A DNA stretch of 36,693 nucleotides from Catajapyx aquilonaris. Its lineage: Eukaryota. The stretch covers positions 62,001 to 98,693 of the forward strand of contig KZ538217.1 of NCBI GenBank assembly GCA_000934665.2. Direction: 5' to 3'. Made by a program: the position numbers and the translations under genes. The notes beneath the pieces are model-generated. The model had not been told where the DNA came from and did no database searches. It saw nothing but the letters and a program-made list of their open reading frames with translations. Positions 10,065 to 34,338 of the stretch are shown piece by piece (the stretch's first letter is position 1; the number at the start of each line of letters is the position of its first letter).

Positions 10065-10142
<78 letters not shown>
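9725..10142 (+). mobile_element. tRNA-derived SINE with (ATT)n tail and 14-bp target-site duplication
   Basis: Pol III A-box-like TGGCGCCGCGG and B-box GGTTCGATCCC at the head; (ATT)n tail about 10065-10142; flanks tatattgccttcat (9711-9724) and tatattgcctttat (10143-10156). Confidence 0.88.
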
Positions 10143-10147
<5 letters not shown>

Positions 10148-10673
10148 TGCCTTTATTTTCCAGTAAATATATTTCCCACCTCAGAGCTAACAAGATAAGA
10201 AGAAGTGCTGTGTATTGTAAGATGTCGAAACAATGTGCTGATTTTTTCATTGCTGCAGTGTAGGATTAACTTGGAATTCTGTACAACAATGGCAATACAT
10301 GTGTCATTGGGATATTTTTAGACTGTCGACAGTATTATTGTTTCAGAGGCAGTACTTAAATACGAGTTTGCGGACTGCGTTGTACAGATGGTGAATAAAT
10401 ATAGTGATTACTCTTCATAAGCCGTCAATGAGTTCACTCTGGCAGTATTACAATTTATGAGAAGATGAAATTGCTTCTTTTTTTTGTATGTTGCTATCCA
10501 GATTGATCGAAACTGAACAATATTTGTAATTGAATAAAAACGAATTGAATTGGGTTTCCTGTTTTCCCCGCATACTTTCCCGCCCGCCGCCATCTTTGTA
10601 TGGCCCACGCCCCATCACAGAAGCAGAGTGGAAAATTAAGACAGCCTGCTGAGAGAAGATACAAGATAGAAGA

Positions 10674-11515
10674 ATGGTTTCTTGTGTAGCCATAGGTTGC
10701 ACAAACAGATCATGCAAGAAGTATGACAAGAAAATTACATATCACATGTAAGTTTATTCATTCTCTTGATTTTTTGCATGTTGTATACACCATTCCTGCT
10801 GCATACATCACTCCTGACTTGTTTTTTCATGAGGTATTATATGGTTTCTTGGATAATGTTGATTATGACAAACAGGTTTCCCAAAAATCCTGAGAGGAGG
10901 AAGTTATGGATACGTGCAGTTCGAAGGAAGGATTGGAGCAAGCAGCCACCCGGGCCGTCTAAGATAATCCACCTCTGCTGTGAGCATTTCACAGAGGATT
11001 GCTTTGACCGAACGGGATTGGCGACTGTTCGACTGAGAGAAAATGCCATACCTACAGTCTTTCCGGGATTCCCATCTTATCTGCAGCATGTAAGTGAAGT
11101 AACAATCTATCTGAATAAAGATGTAATACACACGGTATAGTTGATAAAGTATATTTGACATTTCTAGCGACCTAAGGCAGTGCGAAAGCCTCCTAAGCGT
11201 CGGTCGTCTCTGTCCATCACAACAAGTGATGAGAAGAATGATGCAAGTAGTGAGCCACAGCATATACCTGATGCCGGCACAGTGAACATCACGACAGCTG
11301 GACCTTCAAGTTCAACAGTACCTAATCTGACGGAGCAACCGGATGCCACAGTGGACTTGGTTTCAGAATCGGCTTCGGCAAATGTTGTAGATACTCCACG
11401 CAAAGTCGCCCTTAAACGCAAGCTGGATAGTGTCACAGGTAAGTACAGTTCAGCTACAATTAAAAGTATGACGCGGACTTGTAGACGCTTAGTGAGAAAA
11501 ACTGCTGCGACTTAA
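10674..11515 (+). CDS. THAP + coiled-coil protein resembling a P-element transposase N-terminus, truncated (possibly pseudogenising). Exons 10674-10747, 10876-11089, 11168-11515
   Basis: MVSCVAIGCTNR...YHM|FPKNPERRKLW...LCCEHF...VRLRENAIPTVF, then TPRKVALKRKL. In-frame TAA at 11513-11515 is followed by 28 more open codons. AATAAA near 11635-11646. Confidence 0.8.
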
Positions 11516-11672
11516 ATAAGAAATCAATTTGGGGAACTCAAAAGTGGCAAATTGATATCAGGCGATGGCCTTGCTGTTCTTGAAGACATACCTGGGTTAT
11601 AGTAGAACCCAAATTGGCGAATATCTATTGGAAATAAATAAATAAATTGGACATTTAAAAGTATCGTCGATA

Positions 11673-11733
11673 TATCGATACAAAAAAATTAGCGATATAA
11701 TCTAGCCTTTCCAAGAATATCGATATATCGATA
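11673..11733. promoter_or_regulatory. Three TATCGATA (DRE-type) palindromes upstream of the second THAP/coiled-coil gene
   Basis: TATCGATA at 11673-11680, 11718-11725 and 11726-11733, 150-200 nt before ATG 11878. Confidence 0.5.
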
Positions 11734-11877
11734 TTACGTTACGTCACTTCCCGAAGCATCCCGAAGGTCCACTTCGCTCGGAACATTTTTTTCTTGTTCG
11801 ATTTCACGTTCGAATAATTATTCTCAGTTGATTATTGTTGATTGCTCTCTGTTGCAGCAGCCTTCCTTCCTTCAACA

Positions 11878-13973
11878 ATGAGGTATTGTTGCGTCTACGG
11901 CTGCAAGAGCGACAGCAGGCGCTTCGAGAAGGGCGTGCCCCAAGGAATCACCTTCCATAGGTATAAAAGCCTCTCTAAGGAGAGCTTCATTCCAGTGGCT
12001 TATCATTTGACTCTAAATAATATCATCACAGGTTCCCCAAGAATGAGAAGATACGAAAAATGTGGGTTGAGAAGCTGAGGTGGAAGAACTGGCAGCCGTC
12101 CAACACCTCCCTGGTGTGTTCGGAACACTTTGCGGAGAGTGACATGGACAGGATGTCCCAGTCCCTGGTCAGGGTGCGGGAAGGTGCGGTACCCACAATT
12201 TTCAAGGGTTTCCCTGCTCACCTGCAGAAGACCGAGAAGAAGAGGAAGCCGCCCAAGTACAGGGAGCCGCCTCCTCTGCCCCCAATTTGTCGGGTGAAAT
12301 CGGTCGAGTCTTGTTCAGAGCAGCGCTACCGGGAACTCCCAGATAATTCCGTAAGCGTTATCTTCATGCGAAAGGCAAAGTTTGTCGGTTCGTCCGGTTT
12401 CATACCCATTTCGTAGTGATTTCATACCCATTTTGTACCATATTGGACACAAGACGGACACGAAATGGGTACGGATGGGACCATGGCAACAGGTTTTCAT
12501 GGTAGCGTCGATACAATACCATGGCAACAATGACGTCTACATATCTGTAAGACAAAGTGTGTTCGCTTGTTTGTCCATGGCAACAATCATGTCTACCTCT
12601 CCGATTCACGTAAGTCCGAACCTTTTTAGATATCCATACGCTCTAAAGTAGTGCCCCCCATGCCGGGGCCTACCGCTCCTCACTGCAAAATGTGGAGTTC
12701 GTGTAGCGCTGCAGCTACCGCATGGGCTGCCCATGATAATTAGGCATTCGAATTACATGTACCAGCAATGTTTCTTCGAGAAAGCCAGCGAAACCGGGGA
12801 CTAATTTTGCGGCGGGTCACCCCCTCGGGCGTATGTATATCCAAAAAGGTTCGGACTTATGTGAATCAGAGAGTATCTATAAGACAAAGTTTGTTTGCTT
12901 GTTTGTCCACGGCAACAATGGCATCTACATATTATGTACACATGAGGTAAAGTTTGCTTCTTTGTTCATGGCAATGGATCTCCCAACAACAGTGACATTC
13001 AATGCCATATCACTGGTGCCAACAATGATTTGTTTTTTGTTGTTGACCACCATGGAAACAGGCTGCACTGCTAATGCTGTAATGTTAAAGAGTATCTTCT
13101 AATCCTTTGGGTATAATAATTACAGGCTACTGCGACAACAAGTGCAAGTCCCCATATGGAAGCGGCAGCCTCTTCATCGGAGAACGTGGGTGTCGTCCGT
13201 CCAGATAATCCTCAGAAAGGAGCCACGACTAGCTCCAGTCAGCTATCGGTTTCTTACAGTAGCATCAGGTGTTCGATGCCACCAATCCGGGTTCAGAAAG
13301 TCAATCTAAACCCATCGTTATCCAAGAACACGCAGCCCAATCCCCTGCCTGTGATAACGTCTGTTGGAAGCCAGCAAGTGAGCCACCCAAATGAACAGGC
13401 GTCAACTGAAGTGGTGCCGCCTACAGTGTGGGAGTTGCATATGCAGAAGCAACTGGAGGAACTGCAGGAGGTGGTGAAATCGAAAAGTGGCGAAGTGAAG
13501 GTTTTGTTTCAGAACAGGCGGAGGTTGACAGATAGGAACCGAAGGCTTGGAAATGCCATCAGTGGGCTGCAGAAGCGCATTGCGTTTGTCGAGAATGTGT
13601 CGGAAAGTGGTGCAAGCCAGGAGGATGACGCACAGCCGGAAGAAGCCAGTGTCGAAATGAGCCACCTTGAACTGCTCAGCGCTCCTTTAGGACTGAGCTA
13701 CACGATGGCAATCCGGAGAAGAGAGTCAACGTTGAAGCACCAAGTCGAAGAAGCACAACGCAAATTACTGACGAGTGTTAAGAAGGTGAGAAACAAACAG
13801 ACTAGAGACTGAACAGGCAAACTCTGAAACAATTCTAATTCCAGATAAAGGAGCTGGAGCTGGAGAAGCTGAAGTTGTCACAGCGTACCGCCAGCTTGAA
13901 GTGTCTCCTGGACCTCCTGAAGAAAGACGAGTCCCTTCAGGGCGACGACATGCTCGTAGTGGAAAGAGAGCAG
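11878..13973 (+). CDS. THAP + two coiled coils protein. Exons 11878-11960, 12032-12350, 13126-13785, 13845-13973; last exon uncertain (read-through stop near 14014, or an exon at 14782-14853)
   Basis: MRYCCVYGCKS...TFHR|FPKNE...W...VCSEHF...VREGAVPTIF; heptad-rich segments in the last two exons; in-frame GT-AG junctions. Confidence 0.82.
12596..12873. mobile_element. MITE with TA flanks (Tc1/mariner-like)
   Basis: ctctccgattcacgtaagtccgaacctttttagatat ... atatccaaaaaggttcggacttatgtgaatcagagag, about 45-bp inverted termini bounded by TA. Confidence 0.8.
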
Positions 13974-14225
13974 GTATGGCCTCAGTTGCCTCAGCTCCTA
14001 TGTAGAATTGGCTAGGTGTGACTTTGTCTCGCATTGGCTCATCACGTAGGTACAATCTGTCACAAAAAAGTATTGGCCACTTTTGCCCACATTTTCCGTT
14101 CAGTTCGGCCGAAAGATTTTGACAGATAGTAGATGTAGTTACCATGTGGAGTGGGAGTAGGAAGTGTGCCGTCCGGTTGTGGCATTTTCCACTATCGGTA
14201 CGGTCAATGTGGGGGGGCGAGCCAG

Positions 14226-14674
14226 GCAGTGTTGCCCAATTTTTAGTTCACTAGTAGTGAAACTAATCAGCTGCTAGTATGTGTGGGCCAAATAGACATC
14301 TCTGTGTTTACACTGGGCCGTATTCAGAGTCAACAACAAGAAGTTAGTACAGTGCTTTAAACCACGTGACCCAGTTCACTAAGAAAATTCGCATTCAGAG
14401 TCGCGCTTTAGGCCTAGTACGGACTTAGTGCGATCCTGATAAAGATCGTGGCAACACCGCGTCTCGCTAGTACAGTGTTCGAACCTAGTGCACCGCTCAA
14501 AGCAGGCAGTGAGGCGACTCTGAATGGGAGCAACTAGTCTGGCGCTAATGCGAACCTAGCGGCGCACTAGTTAGAGTTGACTTTTGCGCTGCATTAGCGA
14601 ACGACTCTGAATACGGCCCACTGGCATTTTCAACAAAGTCGACTGATGGCATTGGCAAAATTTGGCAACACTGC
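14226..14674. mobile_element. Non-autonomous DNA element hosting a nested MITE
   Basis: gcagtgttgcccaattt ... aaatttggcaacactgc, flanked by CCAG on both sides. Confidence 0.6.
14315..14619. mobile_element. MITE with perfect 17-bp terminal inverted repeat
   Basis: gggccgtattcagagtc ... gactctgaatacggccc, flanked by ACT/ACT; an internal cattcagagtcgc / gcgactctgaatg pair. Confidence 0.82.
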
Positions 14675-14938
14675 CCAGCCCTCCCTCCACCACTTGGATG
14701 TAGCCACTACCATTTGGCGAACCTTCTCTCCCTCTCCGGACATTGCTTCCATACCACATGGTAATAACTACATGCACCTAGGTGATGAGTGAACCCATGT
14801 ATAGGGACAGAGTCACGTCTAGCCAATTTTTCATACATCATAATTATATATAATAAGCGGTTACGTCCTAGACAACCTAAAAATCTGCAAAAAAAATGAA
14901 CGCCCAATTCAGTGGTTTTTAATGTACTCTAAGTACAT

Positions 14939-15040
14939 GGCTGGAATGTTAGTCCCACTGCTAACTTAGCAGTACCAGAGTTGGTAGTGGCACTGCTAAG
15001 TTAGCAGCTGGTTAGCAAGCAGTGGGACGAAAATGCTGCC
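14939..15040. mobile_element. Short palindromic element (family 2), uninterrupted copy
   Basis: gtcccactgctaacttagcagt ... actgctaagttagcag...cagtgggac; homologous to 16021-16516. Confidence 0.65.
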
Positions 15041-15086
15041 TATGGATTATTTCAATATCAACTGTCGGATCCAAGGCTGGGTCCAA

Positions 15087-15390
15087 TGCGCATGCGTGAT
15101 TCGGGCTCTGTAAGCAAAGTTGGAGCCTCATATTGCCATTGCGCATGCGTTCCATGCCCTACCCTAGTCAATTATCAACAATCGACTGATTTGGTAACAA
15201 TGCGCATGCGTGCTTCCGTCTTTCTGTGGTAAACAGCCTCTTGTGGACGCATGCGCATTGTGCACAAATGCGTGACGCTGCAATCTGCCGTGACCGTTTG
15301 CTCCGGTAATTTTCAACATCAACTGCCCGGTGTTATTGCGCATGCGTGCTTCCCTCAGTGTAGACTCAACTCCTTGCAACTGCGCATGCG
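15087..15390. promoter_or_regulatory. Array of six TGCGCATGCG (NRF1/Erect-wing-type) motifs
   Basis: Copies at 15087, 15140, 15201, 15248 (reverse), 15337 and 15381, upstream of CGCCATCTT (15450) and ATG 15655. Confidence 0.6.
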
Positions 15391-15654
15391 TGCGATGCTC
15401 GATAGTGTGAGGCTGCAATTTTCCCGTGACGTAATGTAAGGTTGCCCGGCGCCATCTTGTCTCCAAAATCCTCTTCTCTCCGTGTGTTTCCGTGTCCATC
15501 CCGGATCCTGGATTGTTGTTGCTCCTCCTGGGCATAAGGCGCGTCGCAACGATGCCCATCTAGATTGCACGGGGCACTTTCCCGCCCATTTTTCGTCGGT
15601 TCCCTGAGCTTTTGAAAGGTTTAAAAAGAGGGATAATAGAGACGAGGGAAGAGG

Positions 15655-15807
15655 ATGACTGGCTGCTGTGCCAAAGGATGCACCAACAGGACGGAAAAGG
15701 GGTTCAGGCTGTTCAGGTTCCCCGCCAACAAGATGGTCAGGGAGGTCTGGCTGGCCAGCGTCAAGAGGGGGGACAACTGGAACCCTGCTCATCCCTGCCT
15801 CTGTGAG
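15655..15807 (+). CDS. Gene B alternative first coding exon B1: N-terminal half of a THAP domain, predicted to splice to 18562
   Basis: MTGCCAKGCTNRTEKGFRLFRFP...W...CLCE then donor gag|gtgagg, phase 0. I found no xHF-encoding exon before 18562. Confidence 0.78.
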
Positions 15808-16020
15808 GTGAGGGAACGCCACGAGAGAAGGAAAGAAGGACTGGGTCGTACACTTGCAATGGGTCCTTTGCCAACCACTTGAACCGCCTGTTGCAGGCCT
15901 ATCTGCAGCAGCGTACCATTGAATAATTATTAGTCGAGGAAATGGGATGCTTCTGGTGGTTGGCATGTTACGTTGTTATGAGGACTAACAATGATGTTGG
16001 TGGGCATATCCAGAGTGTTT

Positions 16021-16516
16021 GGATGGAATTTTCATCCCACTGCTAACTTAGCCAACACTGGTACAGTGCTGGACAAATTAGCCGTCGCTGAATGTTTTTT
16101 TTCCGTCGGCGACGGCGCTGCGTTACCTGGCAACTCCATCCGGCGGGCCAATTCAAACATCGGCACATGGAGAGCGCTTCCATTGTTGCCACTGTTTACA
16201 AATCGAGTGAGAGACGCAGACGACCCAGCGACGGGTCTCTTCTGCCTGCTTACACAGTATCTGCAGGGATATGCAGGAGAAACCGGGGAAATCAATGATG
16301 TTAGAAGCAATAAGTCATTTAGGGGTCACTCACTCGATTTGTAAACAGTGGCAACAATGGAAGCGCTCTCCATGGGCTGATGTTTGAATTGGCCTGCCGG
16401 GCAGGGTTGCCAGGTAACTCCGCCGCTGCCGGAAAAAAACATTCAGCGACGGCTAATATGTCCAGCACTGTACTGCTATGTTGGCAGTAACTGGCAGTGG
16501 GAAGAAAATTCTACAC
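16021..16516. mobile_element. Family 2 element interrupted by a long-TIR MITE
   Basis: ggaattttcatcccactgctaacttag ... gcagtgggaagaaaattc; same termini as 14939-15040. Confidence 0.65.
16064..16470. mobile_element. MITE with ~150-bp inverted termini and TA duplication (Tc1/mariner-like)
   Basis: TA|cagtgctggaca...atggagagcgcttccattgttgccactgtttacaaatcgagtgag is mirrored at the right end ...tgtccagcactg|TA. Confidence 0.9.
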
Positions 16517-16531
16517 TTTGTTTTTTAAGAC

Positions 16532-16686
16532 TGCATCCGGAAGGTCGGCCGTCCCACGGAAAAAAAGCCGTATCTGCAAAACCGTTAAGAGTCGACTTGC
16601 CAGTGCTCGAGAGCGGGAAAGTCAACTCTAACAGTTTTTCCGATATGGCTTTTTTTCGTGCGACGTCAGAGGTGTTCTCGGGATGC
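16532..16686. mobile_element. Degenerate inverted-repeat element
   Basis: gcatccgga...cacggaaaaaaagccgtatc...agagtcgactt versus aagtcaactct...gatatggctttttttcgtg...cgggatgc. Confidence 0.55.
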
Positions 16687-16706
16687 TCAGCAACTGCATA
16701 TTTTAA

Positions 16707-17179
16707 AGCTGCGTTTACATGTGAGCGATTGGACGACTGGTAGCATCACTGACTGTGAGTAAAGGCCATTTCACAAAAAAATGTTGCGCGGCAAATTTTT
16801 TATTTATATTTATTGTTGCCAATAATTAATAACAATTGGCGGGGCAGGCGTTTGCTGCTTGCCGCTGCCGCAAAATCTTTTTGTGAAATGGCCTTAACCC
16901 AAGTAACCAGTATTGTGTGAGGTGAAAATGGATTGTTACTTTCATCTCAATATTGGTTACTTGAAGCTGCATTTACATGTGAGCGATTTCACTAGCGAAA
17001 TCATCGCCAAGCGGTAACATTTCCAAGTAACCAGTATTGTTTGAGGCAAAAACTGTTACTTTCACCTCAAACAATATTGGTTACTTCTCTCGGTGGAGAC
17101 TTCGCTTGTCAAATCGCTCACATGTAAATGCACCTTCACTTGGCTTTGCTTGTCAAATTGCTCACATGTAAACGCGGCT
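16707..17179. mobile_element. MITE family 1 copy containing two nested MITEs (16763-16894 and 16965-17135)
   Basis: Outer: TAA|agctgcgtttacatgtgagc...gctcacatgtaaacgcggct|TAA. Inner 1: TAA|aggccatttcacaaaa...ttttgtgaaatggcct|TAA. Inner 2: agctgcatttacatgtgagcgattt...aaatcgctcacatgtaaatgcacct. Confidence 0.85.
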
Positions 17180-17944
17180 TAAAGGAGGGTAAACAACCGT
17201 AATTGAGAAGGCACTTAAATACAACTAAGCATCATAAATGTGTTAAACCACCAGTCTGGTAAAGAACTACATTGCACTGTAGCTTATCCGTACATCGCCG
17301 AAAACATAAGTGAGAATTGAATGTACGGGGAAAAAATGTGTTGCAAACAAAAGAAATAACATACTTTTATTATACAGAAGAAATATTAAAAATTAATGAA
17401 AAGTTTTATTATCTTCATTAAATGGTCATACGAGACGGCTAGGCGTACAGACTAGTCGTCGCTGGCTACCCCATTTCTGGGAGTATGCCGTGATGTAATG
17501 AATCAAAGAATTAAACCTTAGTTAAAGCAGCATACACTGTGTACTCAGAGTACATTAAAAACCTCTGAATAGTTCATTTTTAGATTGTCGAGGACCATTT
17601 TTGGATAATCCGCGTTTTCCGATTATTCAGGTGCGCCTGTGCGTTCATTAGCACCAATAATAATCGGAAGTACTGTGTATGTAGAAGTTGGTACGAGACG
17701 TTCCTTTTCAATTGCCCATCTCCTCAATGTGAATAGTAATGCTTGGCTGTTACTAAAACTACGTGAAGATTCAGCTGCGTAATAAGTGTCTGATGAAAGG
17801 TGAAGGAAATGTGTGGGCACGCTGGGCTCACGTGAAAAGTGCTGAGGCATGCAGTTGATACCAGAAATTTTGTTTGCCCATCTTAGGCGTGAATTCTAAC
17901 TATTGGAAAAGGAGAGAGGATACTAAGAGATACCCCCTGACAAA

Positions 17945-20900
17945 ATGCCGGGCTGTGCAGCCAGATATTGCAAGAACAACCACATGAAAGGCTTCCGCCT
18001 TTTTAAATTCCCGTCGGATCCAGTAAGGAGGCTGGAATGGGCTAAAGTGATTGGCAGGGAGCCCCGACCCAATTCATCTCTTTGTGAGGTATGGCCCCCT
18101 TGCAATCATTCAACCCAAAATAATTTATAAAAAAAAGACACTTTTATCTCAATTTGTTCCAAGATCTTGTGTGCCTCTTCACCATTAGGCCGTGTTTACA
18201 TGCGATCGATTTGATCTGCGGGGAAATCAATTTTTTGGGAGAAATCGATTGTTACTTTTGCTCCAAACCATTCGACACTCAGCAAATCGCTCACATGTAA
18301 ACGCGGGTTTTATACTGCTTGATGCAAAAGACACTGTCTGTACTTTTATTTTTTGTTCAGTTAATCCAACTGTGGTAGCAACCTTGCACTCATTTTGAAC
18401 TTTGTTCGCTATTAGTACTTTAGTAGTTTTTTTTTTCTTTCCATTATCACAGAAAGAATGGCAAGAAATGGGTGTGGCCTGGTTGCGGTAGTAGCGACGC
18501 TGCACTGTTACACTCGAGACAACTTTCAGATTTATTTACCAGACGTATTGTTCCTCCGCAGGTGCACTTCGATGAGTCCCAGTACGAGAGTCATCGCAAA
18601 GATGGATGGAGGAAGCTGAAGCCCAATGCCGTTCCCACCATCTTCAACATCCCCGAGCCCCCGAAGCCATCCAAGCCCCTGAAGGCTGATGTTGCCAAGA
18701 CCCCCCGTGCACAGAAGCCCGGCAAGGGTGGCAACAAGACACCTGTCCTGCCACCGTACAAGAAGAGGGCCACCTGCAAGAAGGAAGTGGTGGAGGAGCC
18801 TGAGGCTGACGAGGCTGAAGATGATGTCGGTGTGGACATGGGAGGCGACGACTCACAGTCCGATGAAGAAGGGAAGGGAAGGAGAAGCACTCAGGACAAG
18901 GAAAACATAAGGAGAAAGGTAACCTAATATATTGTCACATCAAATTTACGCTTACTTTCGCTGCATTTTTGTTTCAGACTCCGTTGAGGGCCAGGAAATT
19001 GGGGCAAGCGTCTCCACCTCCGTCCCTGCAGAAGCCGTACCAGTTGAGGCGACTTGCCATGAAAAAGGAGGCTGTTGCTGACGACACGTTTGAGGACACT
19101 CCGGAGCTAGTTGAGAAGTCGTTGACTCGCAGAAAGTCCTGCATGGGGACCGCTGACGGGAAGGTGAAGTGTCCGCTCTGTTGCGGGGAAGCTCTTGTGT
19201 CGCTCCGTGCCCTCAAGTCCCACTTGGAGTGGGTCATGGGTCATCTCCAGTGCCCGGTCTGCAAGGACAGATTCACCAGCCTGAAGGGCATGGTGGGTCA
19301 CCTGGAGAGGCATCTTATGGACAGGGAAGACGCACAGAGCGACGAAGAGGGTCAGGACGACCCTGGAGAGACGGCGGTTGATGAAGTGGACGAGGACGGG
19401 GAGGAAATCACGCCAGATATTCATGTACGTCACATGCGTCTTGCTGCCCTATACTACTCGAGTTGATAGTAAACATTTTGGAGTAGCGTTTACATGTGAG
19501 CAATTTGCTTGAGCAATTGTTTGAGGGTGACAATCGAGTGTTACTTTTGTACCAAACAGTTGGTTTCATCGCTGAGCGAATCGCTCGCATGTAAACGCGG
19601 CCTAAGACTGAATTTTTAAATTTTGAATAGTGCGAATTTGGGCTGCAGGTTGTACAGTATGTGTTTTCTGGACGAGGCGTAATTTTAGTTTTTTTTATAT
19701 ATTTTTAGCCCGAACGTGAGATTGATCCGAAGCGGTTGAATTTAACGGAAGAAGCTGCTGAAGAGGATCCTTTAGGAGTCCGGACTGACGTACGAAACTG
19801 TTTTTCACTATTGTTATGCCTTCTCATTAGCGCCAGTTCTTGATTGTCGATGGTTTTGCAAATTGTACGCTTGCATAGTAACGGAAGGAATCTTTCAGGA
19901 CCCGGACGACGCGTCAAAGGTACCCCACGATCACAACTATTTCAACAAGAAAACCAAGACAACATCTGTCACCACGGTTTTACCCGAATGTCCTCCCAGC
20001 TCCTCCCAGATGGTTGTCCCGGTGGCCCCTTCGGACGTCATCCCCACCACCTCCCTGGCCCCAGTGCTGGAGAAGCCCCTCCAGTTCAAGATCGAGGCGA
20101 AGGCCAACGGGGAGATGGAAGCCACCACGACGGACCCTGCCGCACTGCAGCTCCCGCAAGAGGTCCTCCAGTTCATCCTCAACAACGACCAGATGAAGGA
20201 CAGGGCTGGGAACACGCCGCAGGTCACCTGGTGCGTGGTGCAGGACAAGAGGTCGGCGGACGCTGGAAAACCTCCAGTCTTGCCAGATGAAGTGGAGTTC
20301 CACAAGCACTTTCCCAAGAGGTGAGTAGTTTCATAATTGCGATGGAGCTTCATGTCAACTTGTCCTTTTGTTTGTTCCAGACGTGCCAAGTCGCAAGGCC
20401 AGTTTCGTTGCAACCGATGTCGGCGTGTGTTCCGCCATCCCGAGAGCCTCGAGCAGCATCAGGCGGAGCATGCGGAACAAATGTCAGTTTGCGAGAAGTG
20501 CGGTGAGATGCGGCCGTCTTTGCACGAGCTTAAAGTTCACATGCGTTCGCATCGCCGCAAGTCCTACATGCGCCAGTGCCCTCTCTGCGAGAAGGTCGTG
20601 TCCCAGCCCAAGTTCAAGGCCCATCTGGTCACTCACCGCGAGCCGCAGTACCAGTGCACGTTATGCAGCAAGCGGTTCTTCTTCGAGAGGATGCTCCTGA
20701 GGCACTCCTGGAGGCACACGGGGGTCAAACCCCACTTGTGCGACGTATGCGGAAACAGCTACTCATCGACAGAGCAGCTCAGAAAGCATTCGCTGAAACA
20801 CGCAAGCACTCAGTTTGGGCAGTGCGAGATTTGTGGGATGCGATTTGGAAGCACACATCACAAGAAGGTATTGTTTCGTTGCGGCAACTTAGTTTTTTTC

Positions 20901-21840
20901 TTGAGGTCTTTCACTCAGCAATGGAGCGGCCCTTTAACATGTGACTGAAATTTCGCAGGTTCATAGCACGTGGCATGCATCACAAGAGCGCCGCCGCTTC
21001 CGCTGCACGTCTTGTTCGGTGGACGGGATGTCGCTGCAAGAGTATCGCCAGCACAACGAGGCCAATCACGGAGGATCCCCGCAGTTCGAGTGCGACATCT
21101 GCCAGCGTGTCTTTAAAAGCGCGGGCTCCTTATACGGCCACAAGAAGTCGCGACACGTCAGCCCCATTTATTGCCCGATCTGCGGGCGATTCTTCTCGGC
21201 AAAGTCGTACCTCAGTGCCCATCTCGAGGCTCACAGGACTGGAAAGGCCAGGTTAGTTTGGGATAGGATTAATTGAGGTCCAATTAATTTACACGCTTTT
21301 CCTGTCTCCAGGTATGTGTGCCCCGATTGCGGTTTTGCGTATTCCGGCGTCTGCGCTGTCAAGACGCATCGGCTGAACCACCACCACTACACCCACCACC
21401 ACCATGGCGCTGGGAGTAGTGGTCGAGGCACCCTTGGGGAGGGGAAGAGACGGAAGAAGAAGGCTGACGGCAACAAAGGAGCGGCTGCGGAGAGGCAGAG
21501 CTACGAGATGGTTCCTGCGAGTGACTATCAAGTGACTATGGAGCACGGCTACCAGGACCAAGGTGGAATGGTGGAGGTGTCCACAGGCGGCACGGTCGTC
21601 CCCATCCCTCTTCACGAGCTGCACATGCACGGGCTCACCCTCCAAGCGCACCCACTGCAGGAGTTGGAGGTGCACGACATGCAGGTGGAAGCCGCGATGC
21701 AGGAAATGCAGATGCAGGTCATGCAACAGCAGCAACAACAGCAGCACCATCCGGAAGTGGAATATGTCGAATACGAACAGGTGAATCTGAAGGAGGAAGC
21801 CGACGTGAGTCAATACATCGTCGTGCAAGAAATGGAGTGA
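17945..21840 (+). CDS. Gene B (paralog of A): THAP + CPLCC + HCF-binding motif + C2H2 array + His/Gln-rich tail. Exons 17945-18088 (B2; or B1), 18562-18918, 18978-19424, 19709-19789, 19899-20320, 20381-20867, 20959-21251, 21312-21840
   Basis: MPGCAARYC...W...LCE|VHF...LKPNAVPTIF; CPLCC; DHNY at 19929-19940; fingers collinear with gene A; intron positions largely shared with A. Confidence 0.9.
18188..18308. mobile_element. MITE family 1 copy (intronic)
   Basis: ggccgtgtttacatgcgatcgattt ... aaatcgctcacatgtaaacgcgg. Confidence 0.75.
19483..19602. mobile_element. MITE family 1 copy (intronic)
   Basis: gcgtttacatgtgagcaattt ... aatcgctcgcatgtaaacgcggcc|taa. Confidence 0.75.
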
Positions 21841-23078
21841 AGTCGCATTTGTGTCCAGGTATTTCAATAGCCGTTATTGGTCGTACTTGCGACTTGCGGC
21901 AGCATTTTCGCTTGGTTGGCAAGCGACGTTTTGAACACGATTGGCCAGTTTTGAGTTGGAACATGTCAGAGTTGCCTTATTACCCCCCGAGAGGTCACCA
22001 ACTTCTCGTCCAGATGTACACTGGTTACTTGGAGATTGTTGTCCCATCGATTGTGTCCTTCCTCCATTTAAAAAAATATCAGTGTGTCATAAAAACCGAG
22101 GGAAGGATCTTCCGCTGCAGGAAGCTTCGGTCAGGAGCATTGTGATTAATTAACAGTTGTAATTAAAAGGTGTCAACTTTTCGTTAAAGGTTGTTTTTTT
22201 TTTACCCTACCGAGGCATATGGTAGCCGATAATTTTTGTAACGATCTCGACGAGATGTTCAAGAGTCCTGTCACTTGCGTTATGTTGAATTTATTCTGAC
22301 CTCGTAATGTGCAAAGTGCTTTATGAATCTGTCGTGACTCAAGTCATGCAGGTATTGATACAATTGGTGTATAATTTAAAAGGTACGAAATGATGTGTAA
22401 AGTACGTCGACGTACAAAATAATTTAAAAGATTAAATCCCCGGAATCTCTATTACTGCTGTTTAATTGGTAGTGTATTTAGCCGAATTTAATTTCACATG
22501 TAACCCCCCAAACAGTTTGCACCTAACCTGCAAAAGCGATTATAAGTAATTATGAGAGAGTCCACACCAGTATTTAATTAATTCAACAGCAAGTACGAAA
22601 GGGGGATATTTTGAAAGAGTGATTATGCTGATAACGGGTGTGAATATTAATTTATATTTACTTCTCATGGCACATGTTTCCAACTAATTAATTTACGCAG
22701 GACGTCGACAAGAGCTTTTTCAACTTCATTCTCGTCACATTAATGGTTAGCTTTTTTATAATTAAGGAAGGTCTGTTGATGAAGTAATCATGTTATACCC
22801 CACACATGTATAATTAAGATCATTAGGTAACTTACATGTAATATTTTTGTTTAAATGTACTTTGTATATAAGACCATAATGAACACCTTTTCACTGGTAA
22901 AGACTGTTATTCGTCGTTCCATCCTGTTGGGGTATCCCCCGCAGCAATTGCATGCACATAAGACCGAGTACGGAACTCAAAATAACACCCATTTATTTCG
23001 CAAATACTTTACAGCAATGAGTAATTACGGCCTATGTATTCAGGTGATGAATTGTGACGAAATCACATTAATGCTTCA

Positions 23079-23210
23079 GGCCCGCATTTACGTACGAGTG
23101 ATTTGATCGGCGATGAAACCGAATTGTTTGGGGCAAAACGCGATTGTTACTTATGCCCCAAAACAATTGGGTTTCATCACTGCTGATCAAATCGCTCGTA
23201 GGTAACCGCA
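23079..23210. mobile_element. MITE family 1 copy, diverged
   Basis: gcatttacgtacgagtgatttgatc ... gatcaaatcgctcgtaggtaaccgc, with the shared core cgcgattgttactt. Confidence 0.7.
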
Positions 23211-23496
23211 TGTTGACCCAATCGCAATTATTTCCTCGTCAGATCAACGTAGGTACAGTATTACGAGAAAAAAATGGTCACTTTATGAAACCTGTTCAAT
23301 GAGGACACTTTCTGCAACACAACATTGCTGCAATTACAAAAATTGTTCAATTCTGTGCGCTTCACTTATAACATGTACCGTACTATCCAAAAGTGAGAAG
23401 CAAATTATTATCTTGGGACAATTCTGTTGTACTATATAACCCTCCAGCCGCAAATGAAAATCTCGTGTCAATTCCACAACTTCACTGTAATGCGCC

Positions 23497-26400
23497 TCAA
23501 ATGATGATCTCCTCGGACATCATGTTGTCCTCCGCTGCGATGGCGTAGCAATCCCCATCCACAATCTCCTCCAGTACTGTCTGCTCAATAATGGTTCCGT
23601 CCACTCCCGAGTCCGCAGTGCCGTGCATCTTCATGTGCGACTGGAGAGCAAAGATCTTGGCGTAATCCGCACCGCAGATGAAGCAGGAGAAGGCGAGCTT
23701 CTTCATGTCGTGGTCCTTCATGTGGGCCGTGAGGCTCTTGTTGAACGCGAACCCTCGTCCGCACAGCTCGCACTTGAAGGGACGAGTGTGGCAACGGACA
23801 TGCTGCCACAGGCGTTGACTCGACTTGAATCGTTTTCCGCACTGGTCGCAAACATGCTGTACATCATTGGGGTTCAGGTAACGCTCGATGTCGTCGGCCT
23901 CAACTTGCACCACCTTCGAACAATCATCATTTCAGTAACGTACATTTCCCACGTAAAATGTGACAAACCTTTGGCTCTCCGACCATTGCATCCGGATCAG
24001 AGTGGGACTCCAGATGAGCCCTGAAGCGATGCATTAGCTTGAATCCGGCCCCGCACACTGGGCAGGTGTGGGTGAACGGTCCCTCGGAGTGTGACAGAAG
24101 GTGCGTCTTCAAATGGGCGTGCAGATAGAAGCGGCGGTTGCACAGAGAGCAGGCATACGGCATGGTGTGCTTCCGACGCTTGTGCGCCTGGAAGTCAACG
24201 CTGCTGGTGAATCGCTCGGCGCAGAAGGGACACTGGTAGCGCTGGACTGTGCTGTGGTGCTTCTGCATGTGGTTGCGTTTCGTTGCGTAGCAGTTGAACG
24301 ACTGAAAAAAGGTCACATTATTACATGGCAGCGAGCTTGACTTAATCGCGCTTACCTTTCCGCATATTGCGCAGTTAAATTTCTTCCCGGTGTGCTTCGC
24401 CATGTGCTGATACCTCCCCATGTACGAGCGGAATCTCTTCTCGCAGTATTTGCAGTCGTAGTACTTGTCCGGCTCTGACTTTGAGTACGGCTTCACCCTC
24501 TGTTTTGGCGGCGCGGGCATCTCCGGCTGGATGGCATCCTCCGCATTTGTCTCTCCTTCTGCCGGCTCATGCGGATGGCAGTTGTTCTTCTTGTGCTGCC
24601 ACAGGCCGCTCCACTTGGTGAAGATCTTTCCGCATCCGTCGCACATGTACCTGCCGTCCCCCCTGTGGCCGCTCTCATGTTCGGCCAGATCGTAATTGCT
24701 CACAAATCTTTTCCCGCAGTAGGAACACAGGTGAGGGTATTCCCCGGTGTGGGTACGCATGTGGCGTCGCATGTTCGGGCCAGTACGGTACGTCTTTGCG
24801 CAGACCTTGCACTGGAAGGGCTTCTCACCCATATGGCGACCACGGCGATGCTGCATTAGAAGAGAGTCCGTGTGGAATCGCTTCGGGCATTCTGGACACT
24901 GCAGCTGCGGCCAGATATGGCTGCCCTTCTGAAATTACAACATTCATTACATTGTGTAACCGATGTTGGCTCTATTGTAACTCACGACGTGACTGTCAAG
25001 TGAAGACTTGTACTTGAAGACTCGTCCGCATTCCTCGCACTTGAATTCGCCCTCTTCGCCCTCTGCCTCCGCTTTCTCCTGCTCTTTGCCCGCCCCTTCC
25101 TCGTCCTCCTCCAGTCGCAAAGTAGGGTACTCCTCAGCGTCCTTCATCCCCATCTCCTTGTGCCTCTTCAGGTGGTTCTTGAGAACCCCGAAGGACTTCA
25201 CGATCTGTCCGCACCCGTAGCACTTGAAGTAGAAGCGCTTCCCATGCGACTTCTTTAGGTGGCTCACCAATGACGACACGGAAGTCACGTACCGCTGGCA
25301 TATGTGGCAGCGCATGATCTTCCAACCCTTGCCGTGAAGCGTCTCAGTCGCAATCACTTGCACTCCTAAGGAAATAATTTTCATTGTAAAAAACGCACAA
25401 ATTTTTTACCAAGCAGCATATCCTAACCTTTCAAGACAAGGTCGTCATCCTTTTCATCGTTCCCACCACTCTCCTTCTGGACTCCCCATTCCGGAAGCCC
25501 TTCCTCGTTGGCTGCTGGACTCGGTTCTTCAACTTCCGGATCAAGCGGGTCCGCATCTGCAGGTTGGTCCATTCCTTCCTCCGACATCGGATTCGGCTGT
25601 TCAGGTTCAGCCAGGATGACCATCTGAACTTCCGCCGGTTGTTCCACTTCCTTGTTTTTGCAGCCCTTCAGATCTATGAAGGGTAAGATGCATTGCTTCT
25701 TTGGACTCGAAGCGGTGCTGATGGGTGCGGAAGAGGGATTAGATCGCCCTGAAGCTGCGGCGGCAGCTGCCGCAGCCGCCGCCGCCGCCGCTTTCTTCTC
25801 CAACTCCTGACGGATGTAATAGTTATGCTCATTCGGCACCACGTCATCTTCACCCTAGTCAGGGAAAATAAGCATCGACATTATTACATAATAAGAACTA
25901 ATTCGCAACAGATTTCAGGAAAATGTACGTCCAACAAGCTCAGATTATGGGTCTCGCTTTATTTGGCTTCAGTACATCAGAACTGCCAATTACATCTTGT
26001 GCGATAATCTTATCAGCATTTCATTTCACTCGTCACACCAAACACTGGTCAAGTACTCATTACTTTGGGTACGAAGAGTAATACAATCCCTGCTGATGTA
26101 AATACGGACACTCGGCTGCATTTACTTCAGAACAACTACGGATCAAGCAGCTCCTCGCTTGCCACTTCGACAATCACGCTCACGTTAGTACAGTGCGACT
26201 CCATGTGCGCTTTCAGTACGTGCCTAAAAGCAAATCCATGCCCGCACATCTCGCACTTGAATGGCTTGGTGTGTGTACGCACATGATGCCACAGCTTCTG
26301 CGACGACGAGAACACTTTTCCACATTCGTCGCACACACAACTGCTTTCTGCCTTGATATCCTCCATGCTGACGACCTTAGGCTTAGATGCGCTATCCTCC

Positions 26401-29400
26401 TCATTCGTATGACTCCTGACATGCTCTTCAAACGCATTTTGGCGCTGAAATTCTGCACCGCACTCGCCACATGTGTGATTAAACGTGCCTTCATGATGAG
26501 CCAACATGTGAGTTCGGAGATGTGGCATCGTGCCAAAGCGACGGCCACACAAGCCACATGCCAAGGGGCGCGTATGTCGCCTCTGTTTGTGTTCACTCAG
26601 CTGTATCTTACTTCCAAAACACTCGTCGCATTGCGGACATTTAATAGTCAGGCCATCCGAATGCATGCGAGATTTATGTTGCCACAAGGACACGTATGAC
26701 TTCAGTACTTGTGGGCAACTTGGACATGGCCATACCCGTCCGGCGTGTGAGTCACGATGCTGCTTGTACCCACCGTATGTCTTGTATGACTTTTTACACT
26801 CCTTACACTCGTAAGTGTAGGCTCGCCTTGCTGGTGGCACCTGTCCGCAAAGTCTCCGATGGCGGTACAACTGCGAGTACGCCTTAAAAGTACGTCCGCA
26901 TCCGTCACACTGGTACGACTCATTCTCGGCATGACTCTCCTCATGCTCTTTCAAATGGAAGCTCGATGTAAATTTCTTGCCACAGTACGAACACAGGTGA
27001 TGGCGCGTGTCATTATGTCGATCGATATGCCGCTTCAAAACTTGCCTCGAAGCGAAACTCTTATTACAGTGCGGACAATCAAACGGGCGCTCTCCCGTGT
27101 GCTTCAAATTGTGTTGCTTTAAAGCGGCACGAGTAGGAAATTTCTCTTCGCAGATGTCGCAAGTGTATCGAAATTCACGATGCACCTTGGTGACATGCCG
27201 GTGGCGGTTTGGACGACCAGTGAATGATTTGTCGCAGTGAGGGCATGGGTAAGCTTTTGGCGACTTGAAAGTAAACTCTTCGTTATCGGATGTACCATCA
27301 GTATCGTCCATAATCGCATCTATAGACTCGTTTAGCGGACCTGCTTCCGATAGAATGTATGACTGCGATCCGCGGTCTACGAAAGATTCATTGGGATCAA
27401 GTACGACTCCCACTTGCTTGTGGCTCAAGTCATCAGCCGGCACAACCTTCGGAGAGTCTCGCCTTCTGACTTGCATCTCTCGAGCCTTCTGAATGACTTC
27501 CTTCCTGTGCGCCTCCAAATGATCGGTCATTCCTTCGTAGGTTCCCTCGCTCCTGCCGCATGTCACGCACGTATATATTAATCCGTCCTTCCCTCGCTCT
27601 TCCAGGGCGGCACGATCGTAGTGCACATGCACACAGCACACATCGTCATCGTCCTCTTCGTAGCGGTTCGGCATCTGGAAGATACGCTTGCAATAATGGG
27701 TTGAAAACCAGTCATCGTCTTTTTTTAAAAAAATTTGTCTTCTTCTCAGCACACATGTTCTTCTGGGTGTGGTAAATCTTGAGTAATGCTTGTAATGAAA
27801 TTCTGCATTGTTGTAATTATGTGTATGCATTCCATGCGAACTATTTCGGAAAGGAATTACGACAAACAAAATTCTTTTGTCCGTCGACTGTTCGGTCCTT
27901 CCACATTTTAATTGAGTGTAAATATGGCAGTGGCCGTAACTATTCCCAAATTTCACATTCAGCACATTTCAACACAGAAATTCCACTACATATTTCCCCC
28001 CCACAAAAAAAAACATTGCAGCCTAGCCAAACAGCTTCGCGTGTTTATAAATATCAGCACAACATCTTCGACCGTAATAAAACAACCTCCAGCCGACGTA
28101 AAGTAACTCGTAATTCTCACCTCCAAAGGAATAGCAGTGTGCGGGACTGTGTCCACTTCCTGATGGCCAGACTTCCTCATCTCCGCAGTCGCCTTTCCTC
28201 CCAAATCTTTTGGGCACTTCTCGCCAATGTGACTTGCGAGGCTTGTAATGGAATCGAATCCGGTGGCTCCACAAGCAGGACATGACATTTTCAGAGATTC
28301 CAGGTGGTGCTGGAGGGCTTGGCGTGACAGAAAAGTGGCGTCGCAGCAGAGGGGACACTTGAGAGATCCCTGCAATAACAAAATGATGGGTTTATGCAAT
28401 TGTACAAGTACATACACTATGATTCGATAGTACAAGCCTTTCAAATAACTCTACGAACCTGTTTGTTCTCCTTAGCATTACCACTCTTGGCTTCTCGGAA
28501 GTGAGACGGAGCTTCCTTCCCTGGCTTGCTCGGATTAGGGTCGAAGTGAAGCTGGCAAAAGAGGTCAAAATTTGAAGCCGCTTATTCCTCTGTACATGCG
28601 AAAATTACTTACCTCGCATATGACTGAATTTGCAATCTTCGAGAGAGATGGCCATGAGAGAAATTTGAGCCACTTTTGCTGCACTTCTTTGGTCTGCGGA
28701 AACGGATAGAACTGCATGCTCACCAGGGACGTGTTCGAAAGGCAACCAGGGACGCAGCAACGTTTTACGCCTTCTTGAAGGTTCGTTTTCACAGCTGGAA
28801 TCGACATGAAAACATAAGTACATCTCCAGGATTTTCATAATCGTGGTACTGACCTATCCTGCCCTTGGTGTTGTCCTTTGGCCTCTCTTCGTACTCGAGA
28901 GGCAGGGAAGGTGGGACGTATCCTTCAGGCAAAGGATATATCTTCCCATCAAATATCTTAGGCACAGCAGTGATCAGAAGCTTGTCCTTGTAGGCCGAAC
29001 GGAACTGCGAGTCTTCGAAGTGCTCAGCGCAGAGCACCAAGCCTTTGAAGCGGGCCTTCGCTGGAGTAATGTCCTCTCGTTTACACATTGTTAACCAGAT
29101 CTTGCACCTAGAAAAATTGACAATTAGCGAGCGTATAGAAACAGTTGTCATACGGAATTACCTTTCCTCGTCGACGGGGAATCTGAAGAACTTTGTGTCC
29201 GAGTTCCATCCCTTCCTGTTGTAGCAATTGGGTGCTGTGCAGAATGGCCCCCTGCACTTCTTCCCCAGCCCCGCGTTCTCCTTCAGCTGAGCGTACCCGC
29301 GCATCACGTTGTGGGCGTGCAGGGCAAGCACCTCGTCGTCCTCCTCTTCCCTCTCCCCGACCTGTCCCGCCCCTCCCTCGTCCCCCACCTCGTTTGGCTG

Positions 29401-29574
29401 CTCCAGCTCCTGCAGGATGTACCCTTCAGGAATCTCCCCGATCAGCGCCTCCATCTCCCCGCACCGAGTCAGAACCACAATAGGATTGACGTGGTCTCCC
29501 CCCATTGTGACCGCCATCATCTGCGGCTCAGGCTCGCCCATCACCACTGCATCGGTGCTGGCAGCCGCTTCCAT
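23497..29574 (-). CDS. Gene C, long form: acidic leader + THAP + degenerate THAP + CPLCC + HCF-binding motif + poly-Ala + C2H2 array 2. Exons 29574-29162, 29107-28854, 28794-28613, 28551-28459, 28369-28121, 25854-25428, 25365-24986, 24928-24356, 24301-23969, 23913-23497
   Basis: THAP1 FCTAPNC...FFRFP...W...LCAEHF...AVPKIF; THAP2 RCCVPGC...FYPFP...W...ICE|LHF; CPLCC; EHNY at 25830-25819. All junctions are GT-AG and in frame. The 28121-to-25854 join is inferred from phase and from the architecture of paralogs A and B. Confidence 0.8.
26136..27674 (-). CDS. Intronless C2H2 array 1: alternative terminal exon of gene C, or a nested same-strand retrogene
   Basis: 1539-nt open exon starting at acceptor cttccag|ATG (phase 0), with many fingers collinear to array 2, a stop at 26136 and minus-strand AATAAA near 25960. 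Confidence 0.88.
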   Translation of the reverse strand: MPNRYEEDDDDVCCVHVHYDRAALEERGKDGLIYTCVTCGRSEGTYEGMTDHLEAHRKEVIQKAREMQVRRRDSPKVVPADDLSHKQVGVVLDPNESFVDRGSQSYILSEAGPLNESIDAIMDDTDGTSDNEEFTFKSPKAYPCPHCDKSFTGRPNRHRHVTKVHREFRYTCDICEEKFPTRAALKQHNLKHTGERPFDCPHCNKSFASRQVLKRHIDRHNDTRHHLCSYCGKKFTSSFHLKEHEESHAENESYQCDGCGRTFKAYSQLYRHRRLCGQVPPARRAYTYECKECKKSYKTYGGYKQHRDSHAGRVWPCPSCPQVLKSYVSLWQHKSRMHSDGLTIKCPQCDECFGSKIQLSEHKQRRHTRPLACGLCGRRFGTMPHLRTHMLAHHEGTFNHTCGECGAEFQRQNAFEEHVRSHTNEEDSASKPKVVSMEDIKAESSCVCDECGKVFSSSQKLWHHVRTHTKPFKCEMCGHGFAFRHVLKAHMESHCTNVSVIVEVASEELLDP

Positions 29575-29724
29575 CGTCACGCCTCACTGAAATGGGGCCC
29601 AGAATAATTAGAGACGTTGACATTTCATTCTGATATGTCGCATAATTTGTGCCCAGTACAAAATAATTTCAGGGCGACATTCCACGAAAGTATTGTGGCT
29701 AGATCATGTTCCATCTTACGTATA

Positions 29725-31010
29725 TAAAGGAAAGTTAGTTACTTAGTCAGTTTGTCAGTTAGCTAGGTGGTGAGTTTGTTACCTTGTTTGTTAACGACTG
29801 AGCTTGTTAACTATGGTTAACATGGTTAGAATGTGCTAGCTAGTTAGTGAGTTTATTAGCTAGTTGGTGAGTTCTTTGCTTGTTTGTTAACTTGTAAGTG
29901 CGTTTCTTAGCTAGTTGGTGAGTTCGTTAGATTGTTAACTAGTTCGTTTGTTAACTATGGTTAACATCCCCCGAAAAGGGTAAAGCCCTCGAAAGGGGTT
30001 TCATAATAAATAAAATAAATAAATAAACTATGGTTAACATGGTTTGTGAATTTATGAGCTAGTTAGTTAGCTAGTTAGTGAGTTTATTAGCTAGTAAGTG
30101 AGTTCATTAGCTAGTTAGTGAGTTATTTGTTTGTTAACTAGTTCATTTGTTAACTATGGTTAACATGGTTTGTGAATTTATGAGCTCGTTAGTTAGCTAG
30201 TTAGTGGGTTTGTTAGATAGGTAGTTAGTGGGTTTGTTAGATACGTAGTGAGTTCGTTAGATTGGTAGTGAGTTCTTTAGCTTGTTTGTTATCTAGTTAG
30301 TTGTTAACTACATGGTTAAAATGGTTAGTGGGTTTGTTAGATAGGTAGTTATACTAGGGGCAAGATAACTCATGCGTTTGGGGAAGTGGCTTGTAACCTT
30401 GGCAACCATAATTAGCCCCGCCCCCTGCTGAATTTTTTTTGTATGGAATTTAGAACGATTGGGGGGGGGGAAATATTTCCTCCTGCTGGGTTACCAGTAG
30501 CGTAAGTGTAAACAAACCCATCTCATTCTTGAGGCTTTAGAGAACATAACGCCCATCTCCTTTGAAATCGAATCATCTGATAGGTCAACCGGTAGAGGGC
30601 GGGGCTAATTACGGCTGCCAAGGGCACAAGCCACCTCCCCAAACGCATGAGTTATCTTGTCCCTATTGTAGTTTGTTAACTAGTTTGTTAACTATGGTTA
30701 ACATGGTTAGTGGGTTCGTTATCTAATTAGTGAGTTTGTTAGGTAGGTAGTTTGTTAGATAGTTAGTGAGTTTGTTAGGTAGGTAGTTAGTTAGTTAGTG
30801 ACTGTTAGTTTCTTAGATAGTTAGTGACTCTGTTAGTTTCTTAGATAGTTAGTGACTCTGTTAGTTTCTTAGATAGTTAGTGACTCTGTTAGTTCCTTAG
30901 TTAGTGACTGTTAGTTTCTTGGATAGTTAGTGACTCTGTTAGTTTCTTAGTTAGTGACTCTGTTAGTTTCTTAGATAGTTAGTGACTCTGTTAGTTTCTT
31001 AGATAGTTAG
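29725..31010. repeat. Low-complexity TTAG/GTTA-based satellite grading into a ~28-nt minisatellite; abuts an assembly gap (N 31011-31022)
   Basis: Recurrent ttagctagttagtgagtt and gttaactatggttaacatggtt; from about 30800 the unit is ttagatagttagtgactctgttagtttc. Confidence 0.9.
30352..30668. mobile_element. MITE with ~75-bp inverted termini and TA flanks, inserted in the satellite
   Basis: caagataactcatgcgtttggggaagtggcttgt...taattagccccgccc is mirrored by gggcggggctaatta...acaagccacctccccaaacgcatgagttatcttg. Confidence 0.88.
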
Positions 31011-34125: not shown

Positions 34126-34338
34126 AAACTCGTGAGTCGTACTCAGTTTATAATGGTCGATATTTTTGTACTTTTTTTTAATTGAAATAAATCTCACTCG
34201 ATGGAAACAGTCATTTTGTTAGATAGGTTGTGGTCTATTGCGATAATTCGGCACATTATAGTAAGTAAATTTTTCTATTCGTCTTTTCACCAGATTAATG
34301 AAGAAATTAATTGCTTTATTTTATTCCAGTGCATCGTC

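Follow-up and report, generated by a model that had tools for sequence, protein, structure and literature searches.

The stretch of DNA analysed here, called the window throughout, comprises 36,693 nucleotides of the Catajapyx aquilonaris contig KZ538217.1 (assembly GCA_000934665.2, positions 62,001 to 98,693 of the forward strand). It is DNA of animal type, and its GT..AG introns measure 55-290 nt. It contains a gene for a THAP and zinc-finger protein in which two homologous exons, B1 and B2, each carry a start codon and the N-terminal half of a THAP domain, and a single exon, E3, carries the C-terminal half. The coding parts of this gene are organized as follows:

15655..15807, plus strand: B1, ATG and THAP N-terminal half, 51 codons with three zinc ligands, ending in phase 0 with LCE at the donor GAG/GTGAGG
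17945..18088, plus strand: B2, ATG and THAP N-terminal half, 48 codons with three zinc ligands, ending in phase 0 with LCE at the donor GAG/GTATGG
18562..18918, plus strand: E3, shared exon with the His ligand (V-H-F), the AVPTIF box and a low-complexity basic/acidic linker; acceptor ...cctccgcag/GTG, phase 0 at both ends
18978..21840, plus strand: remainder of the gene, exons 18978-19424, 19709-19789, 19899-20320, 20381-20867, 20959-21251 and 21312-21840 (stop)

Translation of the two half-exons from the initial Met to LCE gave 51 residues for B1 (MTGCCAKGCTNRTEKGFRLFRFPANKMVREVWLASVKRGDNWNPAHPCLCE) and 48 residues for B2 (MPGCAARYCKNNHMKGFRLFKFPSDPVRRLEWAKVIGREPRPNSSLCE). The exons measure 153 and 144 nt, respectively, both end in phase 0 with a GT directly 3′ of them, and KGFRLF.FP is common to both. 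Comparison with the Pfam THAP profile (PF05485, gathering cut-off of 23.9 bits), in which B1, B2 and E3 were scored singly and not as a joined product, matched B1 over profile positions 1-55 (E 9.3e-8, 33.2 bits), the highest score among the window's half-exons, and B2 over positions 1-54 (E 3.7e-7, 31.2 bits); both matches are far beyond chance. An initial annotation of this DNA had described an ATG, three ligands, the KGFRLF.FP stretch and a phase-0 LCE end followed by gt in each of the two exons, and the translation and the Pfam search bear out this description. THAP domains have a C2CH signature with the spacing Cys, 2-4 residues, Cys, about 35-50 residues, Cys, 2 residues, His, and are further recognized by a conserved FP, a Trp and a C-terminal AVPTIF box. 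The Cys ligands are C4/C5, C9 and C50 in B1 and C4, C9 and C47 in B2, with 40 and 37 residues, respectively, between the last two and a loop before the third Cys that is 3 residues shorter in B2; in both cases E-V-H follows over the predicted junction to 18562. Both B1 plus E3 and B2 plus E3 conform to the C2CH spacing, the His depending on that putative splice, and the other hallmarks are present as RFP and W32 in B1, KFP and W32 in B2, and NAVPTIF in E3.

The variable exon closes with the third Cys, and E3 opens with the His that lies two residues further on. E3 (VHFDESQYESHRKDGWRKLKPNAVPTIF...) matched positions 57-87 of the THAP profile (E 0.0048, 18.1 bits), which is under the cut-off when it is taken alone. 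The start at 18562 given to E3 in the initial annotation was correct, and its end at 18660 was not, the coding part reaching 18918. A tblastn comparison of B1, B2 and E3 with the six frames of the whole window detected no further THAP second half in 15808-18561, and the other THAP second halves of the window (at 6549, 11030, 12126 and 29022) belong to other genes. Within the B1/B2 gene, though not within the window as a whole, E3 alone can then provide the fourth ligand together with the AVPTIF box. When either B1 or B2 is joined to 18562 and to the downstream exons, the result is an unbroken frame of 922 or 919 codons, respectively, with its stop at 21840. As for a transcript carrying both half-exons, the sequence after the AG at 17885-17886 opens with GCG TGA, and a phase-0 splice from B1 to this acceptor stops at the second codon, as had been noted; the presence of B1 and B2 in one mRNA is excluded because of this immediate TGA in the B2 leader. 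An in-frame B1-B2 fusion through the AG at 17928-17929 was also considered; it is possible on paper and unlikely, the site lying in a purine-rich stretch.

The B1 and B2 proteins are identical at 21 of 51 residues (41%, E 8e-12), and each is the best relative of the other in the window (tblastn E 5e-9, the second-best match having E 1e-4). Their DNA is homologous over 15584-15809 and 17876-18090 (score 63, reached by 0 of 300 shuffles). The leaders alone, 15580-15654 vs 17860-17944, scored 29, a value reached by 2 of 1000 shuffles, and the blocks further upstream showed no homology, their scores being reached by 428 and 346 of 500 shuffles. Since the homology is limited to leader and exon, a 5′ unit was duplicated and not a gene. 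Being adjacent and homologous, with the same phase and similar length, the two exons present the features by which tandem exon duplication is recognized, and from their sequences they are best described as an old tandem duplicate of a 5′ unit made of a leader of about 70 nt, an ATG and a half-domain. Identity between B1 and B2 by codon position was 0.54, 0.58 and 0.35 over 48 aligned codons; third positions are near random, and the ligands, FP, Trp, ATG and donor are kept in both copies, which is the pattern to be expected if both had stayed coding for most of the time since duplication. The G+C content at third codon positions (GC3) reaches 0.82 in B1 (42/51), where the intron has a GC of 0.44 (binomial p 2e-8). 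This agrees with the values elsewhere in the gene, 0.69 for E3, 0.70 for exon 4 and 0.79 for exon 6, the small exon 5 being exceptional at 0.41 (n=27). By these criteria B1 is clearly a live coding exon, and B2 is probably one as well, with weaker signs. Altogether, the Pfam matches, codon-position identity and GC3 point to two intact half-exons whose evolution has been that of coding sequence.

In the alignment with THAP1, the third Cys presumably corresponds to THAP1 residue 54, by extrapolation from that alignment. In the THAP1-DNA structure, the two-stranded sheet of the domain fills the major groove, base-specific contacts are made by Gln3, Lys24, Tyr50/Ser51 of loop L3 and Ser52 (with Lys46-Ser52 as the span involved), and the minor groove is contacted by Arg65, which belongs to loop L4 (PMC2879526). 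The alignments of B1 with THAP1 and of B1 with B2 place T in B1 and P in B2 at the residue-3 position, and R in B1 and K in B2 at the Lys24 position. Loop L3 reads NWNPAHPCL in B1 vs RPNSSL in B2, which is three residues shorter and different throughout. All these positions fall in the variable exon, and loop L4 and the AVPTIF box fall in E3; the assignment of the major-groove part to the N-terminal half and of the minor-groove loop to the C-terminal half, already made in the initial annotation, is thus consistent with the alignment to THAP1 and with the THAP1-DNA structure (PMC2879526). It is a reasonable inference that the two proteins, if both are made, would differ in DNA preference.

Downstream of E3, the predicted protein contains an atypical CPLCC...H / CPxC...H finger pair and then classical C2H2 fingers (Pfam zf-C2H2). 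The exon structure of this part was examined with contigs of X1, a sequencing run of unrecorded kind that shares 0.29 of the words of the window; these contigs were compared with positions 10300-29999. The contigs are spliced, and the run behaves like a transcriptome: five GT..AG joints were found in this gene (19424>19709, 19789>19899, 20318>20379, 20865>20957 and 21247>21308, with the cut shifted by 2, 2 and 4 places in the last three), and three introns of a paralogous gene on the minus strand were also confirmed. The junction 18918>18978 is a predicted one, absent from the X1 joints listed. The X1 contig on exon 4 begins at 18979, one base inside the exon, and does not extend into E3, which may reflect a graph break at a branch point or low cover and from which nothing is drawn. 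Likewise, nothing is drawn from the X1 depth of the bins 15556-16212 (4.31), 17527-18183 (1.02) and 18184-18840 (5.18), in which contigs of repeat elements are mixed with exons and which are unsuited to ranking the parts of a gene. No run of RNA type was found in the search of sequencing runs for the window.

The gene belongs to a local family, with CPLCC-motif paralogues at 6.2-9.5 kb (plus strand), 23.5-29.6 kb (minus strand) and from 34.2 kb (plus strand). Two of these paralogues split the THAP domain at the intron site of B1 and B2 (GLCD/AHF at 6454/6546, and ICE/LHF at about 28613/28553 on the minus strand), so that this site (C-E/D before x-H-F) can be regarded as a family trait. In the 6.2 kb paralogue, a non-coding first exon at about 6050-6207 (donor ACAG/GTAGGC) is apparently spliced to an acceptor 10 nt before the ATG at 6287, and the THAP N-terminal half is far more diverged (Pfam E 0.14). 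Outside the window, CE-x-HF is unbroken in five of nine relatives fetched, and in two others (P0008 and P0016) LCE is followed by V and then by nonsense, as if a gene caller had run into a GT intron. A search of representative proteins with B1 yielded 310 matches at E<=1e-3, with a best identity of 60%; the own copy of the gene was not among these 310, in a collection without near relatives of the species. The window also encodes an ORC2 homologue whose best matches (crustaceans, birds, an annelid and a hemichordate) are only 47-51% identical, and the species and its near relatives are therefore absent from the protein collection searched. The protein search with E3 gave no match in either of its two length classes, "longer" and "near", and the metagenome scan with exon 4 gave no match. 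The scan with B1 gave five loci: a full single N-terminal half in two of them (L001 and L002), an identical partial match in L003 and L005, and a 17-residue fragment in L004. In L001 the N-terminal half occupies 201-353, and about 1.5 kb further on a second half begins, at 1854-1892. The single N-terminal halves of L001 and L002 neither support nor refute an exchange of half-exons.

Analysis of the regions upstream of the two half-exons and of the spacer between them revealed the following features:

15088..15390, no strand assigned: six GCGCATGCG palindrome-type motifs in a promoter-like region upstream of B1, which are all 6 matches in the window
15451..15458, plus strand: GCCATCTT motif, 204 nt upstream of the B1 ATG, one of 5 matches in the window
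15584..15654, plus strand: B1 leader, homologous to the B2 leader, opening with GCCCATTTT and with an acceptor-like AG at 15607-15608
15808..17875, plus strand: spacer or intron between the units, with inverted-repeat elements resembling miniature inverted-repeat transposable elements (MITE-like) at about 16020-16480 and 16703-17184
17876..17944, plus strand: B2 leader, opening with GCCCATCTTAG and with an acceptor-like AG at 17885-17886 followed by GCG TGA

The GCGCATGCG motif, which we take to be NRF1/ewg-like, is strongly clustered, none of 100 shuffles reaching six matches (mean 0.46). The presumably YY1-like GCCATCTT motif is not enriched, 27 of 100 shuffles reaching five matches; for three of the five matches, the location is the 5′ end of a THAP gene (6068, 10589 and 15451). 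Both leaders open with a conserved GCCCATYTT (GCCCATTTT or GCCCATCTT), and we assume that the leader-start motif GCCCATTTT is initiator-like. This conserved start could be an initiator, which would favour two start sites. In B2 the motif runs into the AG at 17886, and the acceptor-like AGs of B1 and B2 occupy non-homologous positions in the leader alignment. There is no ATG in 17850-17944 (95 nt) and there are six in the preceding 171 nt; the ATG-free stretch fits either a very short leader of B2 itself or the use of the acceptor. Upstream of B1, a donor-like AAT/GTAAGG is present at 15436, and a shared non-coding first exon spliced to either unit, mirroring the exon at 6.05-6.21 kb of the paralogue, is possible. 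The initial annotation had invoked promoter choice. A motif cluster does lie upstream of B1, and none lies near B2, which is preceded by an acceptor-like site; a single promoter combined with alternative splicing is therefore no less possible than a pair of promoters.

A distance of 2.75 kb separates B1 from 18562, against 55-290 nt for the confirmed introns, and the window contains a dense cluster of THAP genes and fragments in which local duplication and loss are common. Both facts could be accommodated if B1 were the stranded first exon of a deleted tandem paralogue, giving a short or non-coding RNA of its own or a truncated peptide and having no link to 18562. We regard this as very improbable: the homology with B2 spans leader and exon only and not a gene, the present composition of B1 is of the coding type, its strong donor finds no alternative partner in frame, and inserted inverted-repeat elements account for about 1 kb of the distance. 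MITE-like inverted repeats with GCTGCATTTACATGTGAGCGATT-type ends occur at several places in the introns of the gene (16020-16480, 16703-17184, 18184-18310 and about 19480-19560). X1 contigs match these elements at high depth, which indicates that some copies are transcribed somewhere in the genome. The open reading frames of the spacer and one on the opposite strand at 15355-15975 (206 aa) had no Pfam match, and 14000-19500 had no match to an Rfam family.

Several observations weigh against the production of two isoforms. No promoter-type motif cluster was found near B2 in the whole-window motif search, and the AG at 17886 is a good acceptor (pyrimidine content of 0.70) whose use after B1 gives a stop. 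The GC3 of B2 is 27/48 = 0.56 (p 0.06 vs the 0.44 background, and p 0.011 vs the 0.39 of its own intron), and its L3 loop is shorter and less canonical. Among the X1 joints and pieces listed, none is at B1, B2 or 18562, the joints of this gene running only from 19424 on. In addition, the protein and metagenome searches revealed no orthologue of the gene, and no locus with two N-terminal halves is among the five metagenome loci, of which the two with readable flanks, L001 and L002, are short contigs that may not be orthologous.

Part of this evidence would agree with B1 being the only productive half-exon, with transcription starting at the promoter-like cluster, B1 spliced to 18562, and B2 either having lost its function recently or acting as a "poison" exon, whose entry by way of the 17886 acceptor would place a TGA after B1 and lead to decay of the mRNA. 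The promoter-like motifs lie solely upstream of B1, the codon bias of the gene is present in B1 and much less so in B2, B1 scores higher than B2 against the THAP profile and its loop is closer to canonical, and an acceptor-like site followed by GCG TGA precedes B2. On the other hand, B2 keeps its ATG, frame, three ligands, FP, Trp, donor and an above-cut-off Pfam match despite saturated silent sites, and its leader is ATG-free and recognizably conserved with that of B1. A poison exon needs none of these conserved features, and we consider this explanation unlikely, while giving it some weight.

The same acceptor could be read in the opposite sense, with B2 as the only productive half-exon and B1 as a 5′ leader exon spliced to 17887, either read as a 52-codon upstream frame or untranslated. 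The usable appearance of 17886, the apparent non-coding exon before the N-terminal half exon of the 6.2 kb paralogue, and the position of B2, nearest to E3 and with an A at −3, are consistent with this arrangement. It is difficult to reconcile with the GC3 of B1 and with its top score among the window's half-exons in the THAP comparison, given that an upstream frame has no reason to retain zinc ligands, FP, Trp and a phase-0 donor; the acceptor-like AG of B2, moreover, is not conserved in the B1 leader. We hold the exclusive use of B2 to be quite unlikely.

Having weighed these alternatives, we incline, with some caution, to the reading in which the gene makes two isoforms, one differing from the other by the major-groove half of a single THAP zinc module. 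A more specific account is one that we can put forward only tentatively, as falling slightly short of an even chance: a single THAP module would be rebuilt from either of two diverged N-terminal halves, with one C2H2 array behind it, through a switch operated by start-site or splice choice and enforced by the stop. In the favoured reading, the 5′ coding unit of the second gene of the local THAP and C2H2 zinc-finger family was duplicated in tandem long ago; it comprises the leader of about 70 nt, the ATG and the THAP half with three zinc ligands, both beta-strands and loop L3, and both copies have remained protein-coding. The C2CH site of each copy can be completed only by the phase-0 splice to 18562, which supplies the His, loop L4 and the AVPTIF box. 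The isoforms that most likely result, of 922 and 919 residues, would differ in the N-terminal, major-groove-reading half alone and probably in DNA preference, and the choice between them would be made by two start sites, or by one promoter and alternative splicing. The anatomy, the homology of the two units, their coding-type evolution, the logic of the frames and the downstream exons are directly shown; that both junctions are made, the way in which one is chosen, and a difference in specificity are what we infer.

Other elements of the window complete the picture of the locus. The minus-strand paralogue (23500-29600) apparently encodes a pair of THAP modules that share a reading frame. The first of them, which is complete, is interrupted by an intron after FRFPVDEE(R), its exons lying at about 29575-29170 and 29108-28850. 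The N-terminal half of the second is at about 28808-28611 and ends in ICE before gt, followed by a short exon, LHFDPNPSKPGKEAPSHFREAKS, in which the His is present and the AVPTIF box is absent; without this box, the second module looks truncated. Between the zinc-finger paralogues, small THAP genes are found at 10676-11515 and 11878-13975 (plus strand), each with an ATG. They are split before FP (ITYHM/FPKNPE and ITFHR/FPKNE), at a site different from that of B1 and B2, and the 11878-13975 unit continues into coiled-coil-like exons at 13120-13975; these may represent separate genes or a single gene that has a choice of THAP units. The ORC2 homologue occupies 32344-34125 as a single uninterrupted frame of 593 codons (Pfam PF04084/PF24882 in relatives), and about 60 nt after its end the fourth member of the CPLCC-finger family begins at 34186 (to 36693), apparently without a THAP exon in front. 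The window also contains a perfect (TAT)27 microsatellite at 10065-10145 and a TTAG/TAGT-rich minisatellite of about 1 kb at 30060-31010, with periods of 20-106 nt.

Should both junctions prove real, a single regulator would gain two DNA specificities by exchanging half of a metal-binding fold, with its zinc site built over a splice junction. The two isoforms would then be a natural matched pair for the study of THAP sequence preference, differing in the N-terminal tail, the Lys24 position and L3 and identical in L4, and THAP would become one of the few DNA-binding domains that are retuned when one homologous exon replaces another. If just one of the exons is used, the locus would be an ordinary exon duplicate heading for loss.

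Among known systems, UGT1A and the clustered protocadherins have variable first exons that each bring a start codon and a donor and are spliced to constant exons; these variable exons encode whole domains and have proven promoters of their own. The B1/B2 gene is like them in having several first exons with their own start and common downstream exons, and unlike them in that its variable exons encode half a domain and the second promoter is only putative. The swapping of split-finger exons in Drosophila lola was the comparison drawn in the initial annotation. Substitutions of tandem-duplicated exons are a recognized class (PMC9741552, PMC8373072, PMC9013439), and B1 and B2 resemble the exons described there in being adjacent, homologous, of like length and phase, old and both kept. 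Unlike that class, the B1/B2 unit includes a leader and an ATG, and its exclusivity would come from an in-frame stop in the second leader; the inclusion of leader and ATG places the event at the 5′ end of the gene, which may therefore run by start-site choice and not by splice-site competition. Full-text literature searches gave no swap of half a THAP domain, the nearest case being human THAP4, whose isoforms THAP4-204 and THAP4-202 differ in having or not having the whole THAP domain (PMC12578292). As in the B1/B2 gene, isoform choice in THAP4 alters THAP content, but there a whole domain is present or absent and not half of it exchanged (PMC12578292). Homologous exon substitution in a DNA-binding domain is thus a known kind of event that would be new for THAP. 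In FOXP1, according to a review, exons 18 and 18b (the latter giving FOXP1-ES) are mutually exclusive homologous exons in the forkhead domain that lead to different preferred DNA motifs (PMC11701043). Like B1 and B2, these exons replace part of one DNA-binding domain with the frame kept; unlike them, the FOXP1 exons are internal and their motif preferences have been reported, whereas B1 and B2, whose isoforms are predicted ones, provide the start codon along with three of four zinc ligands in a site that E3 would complete.

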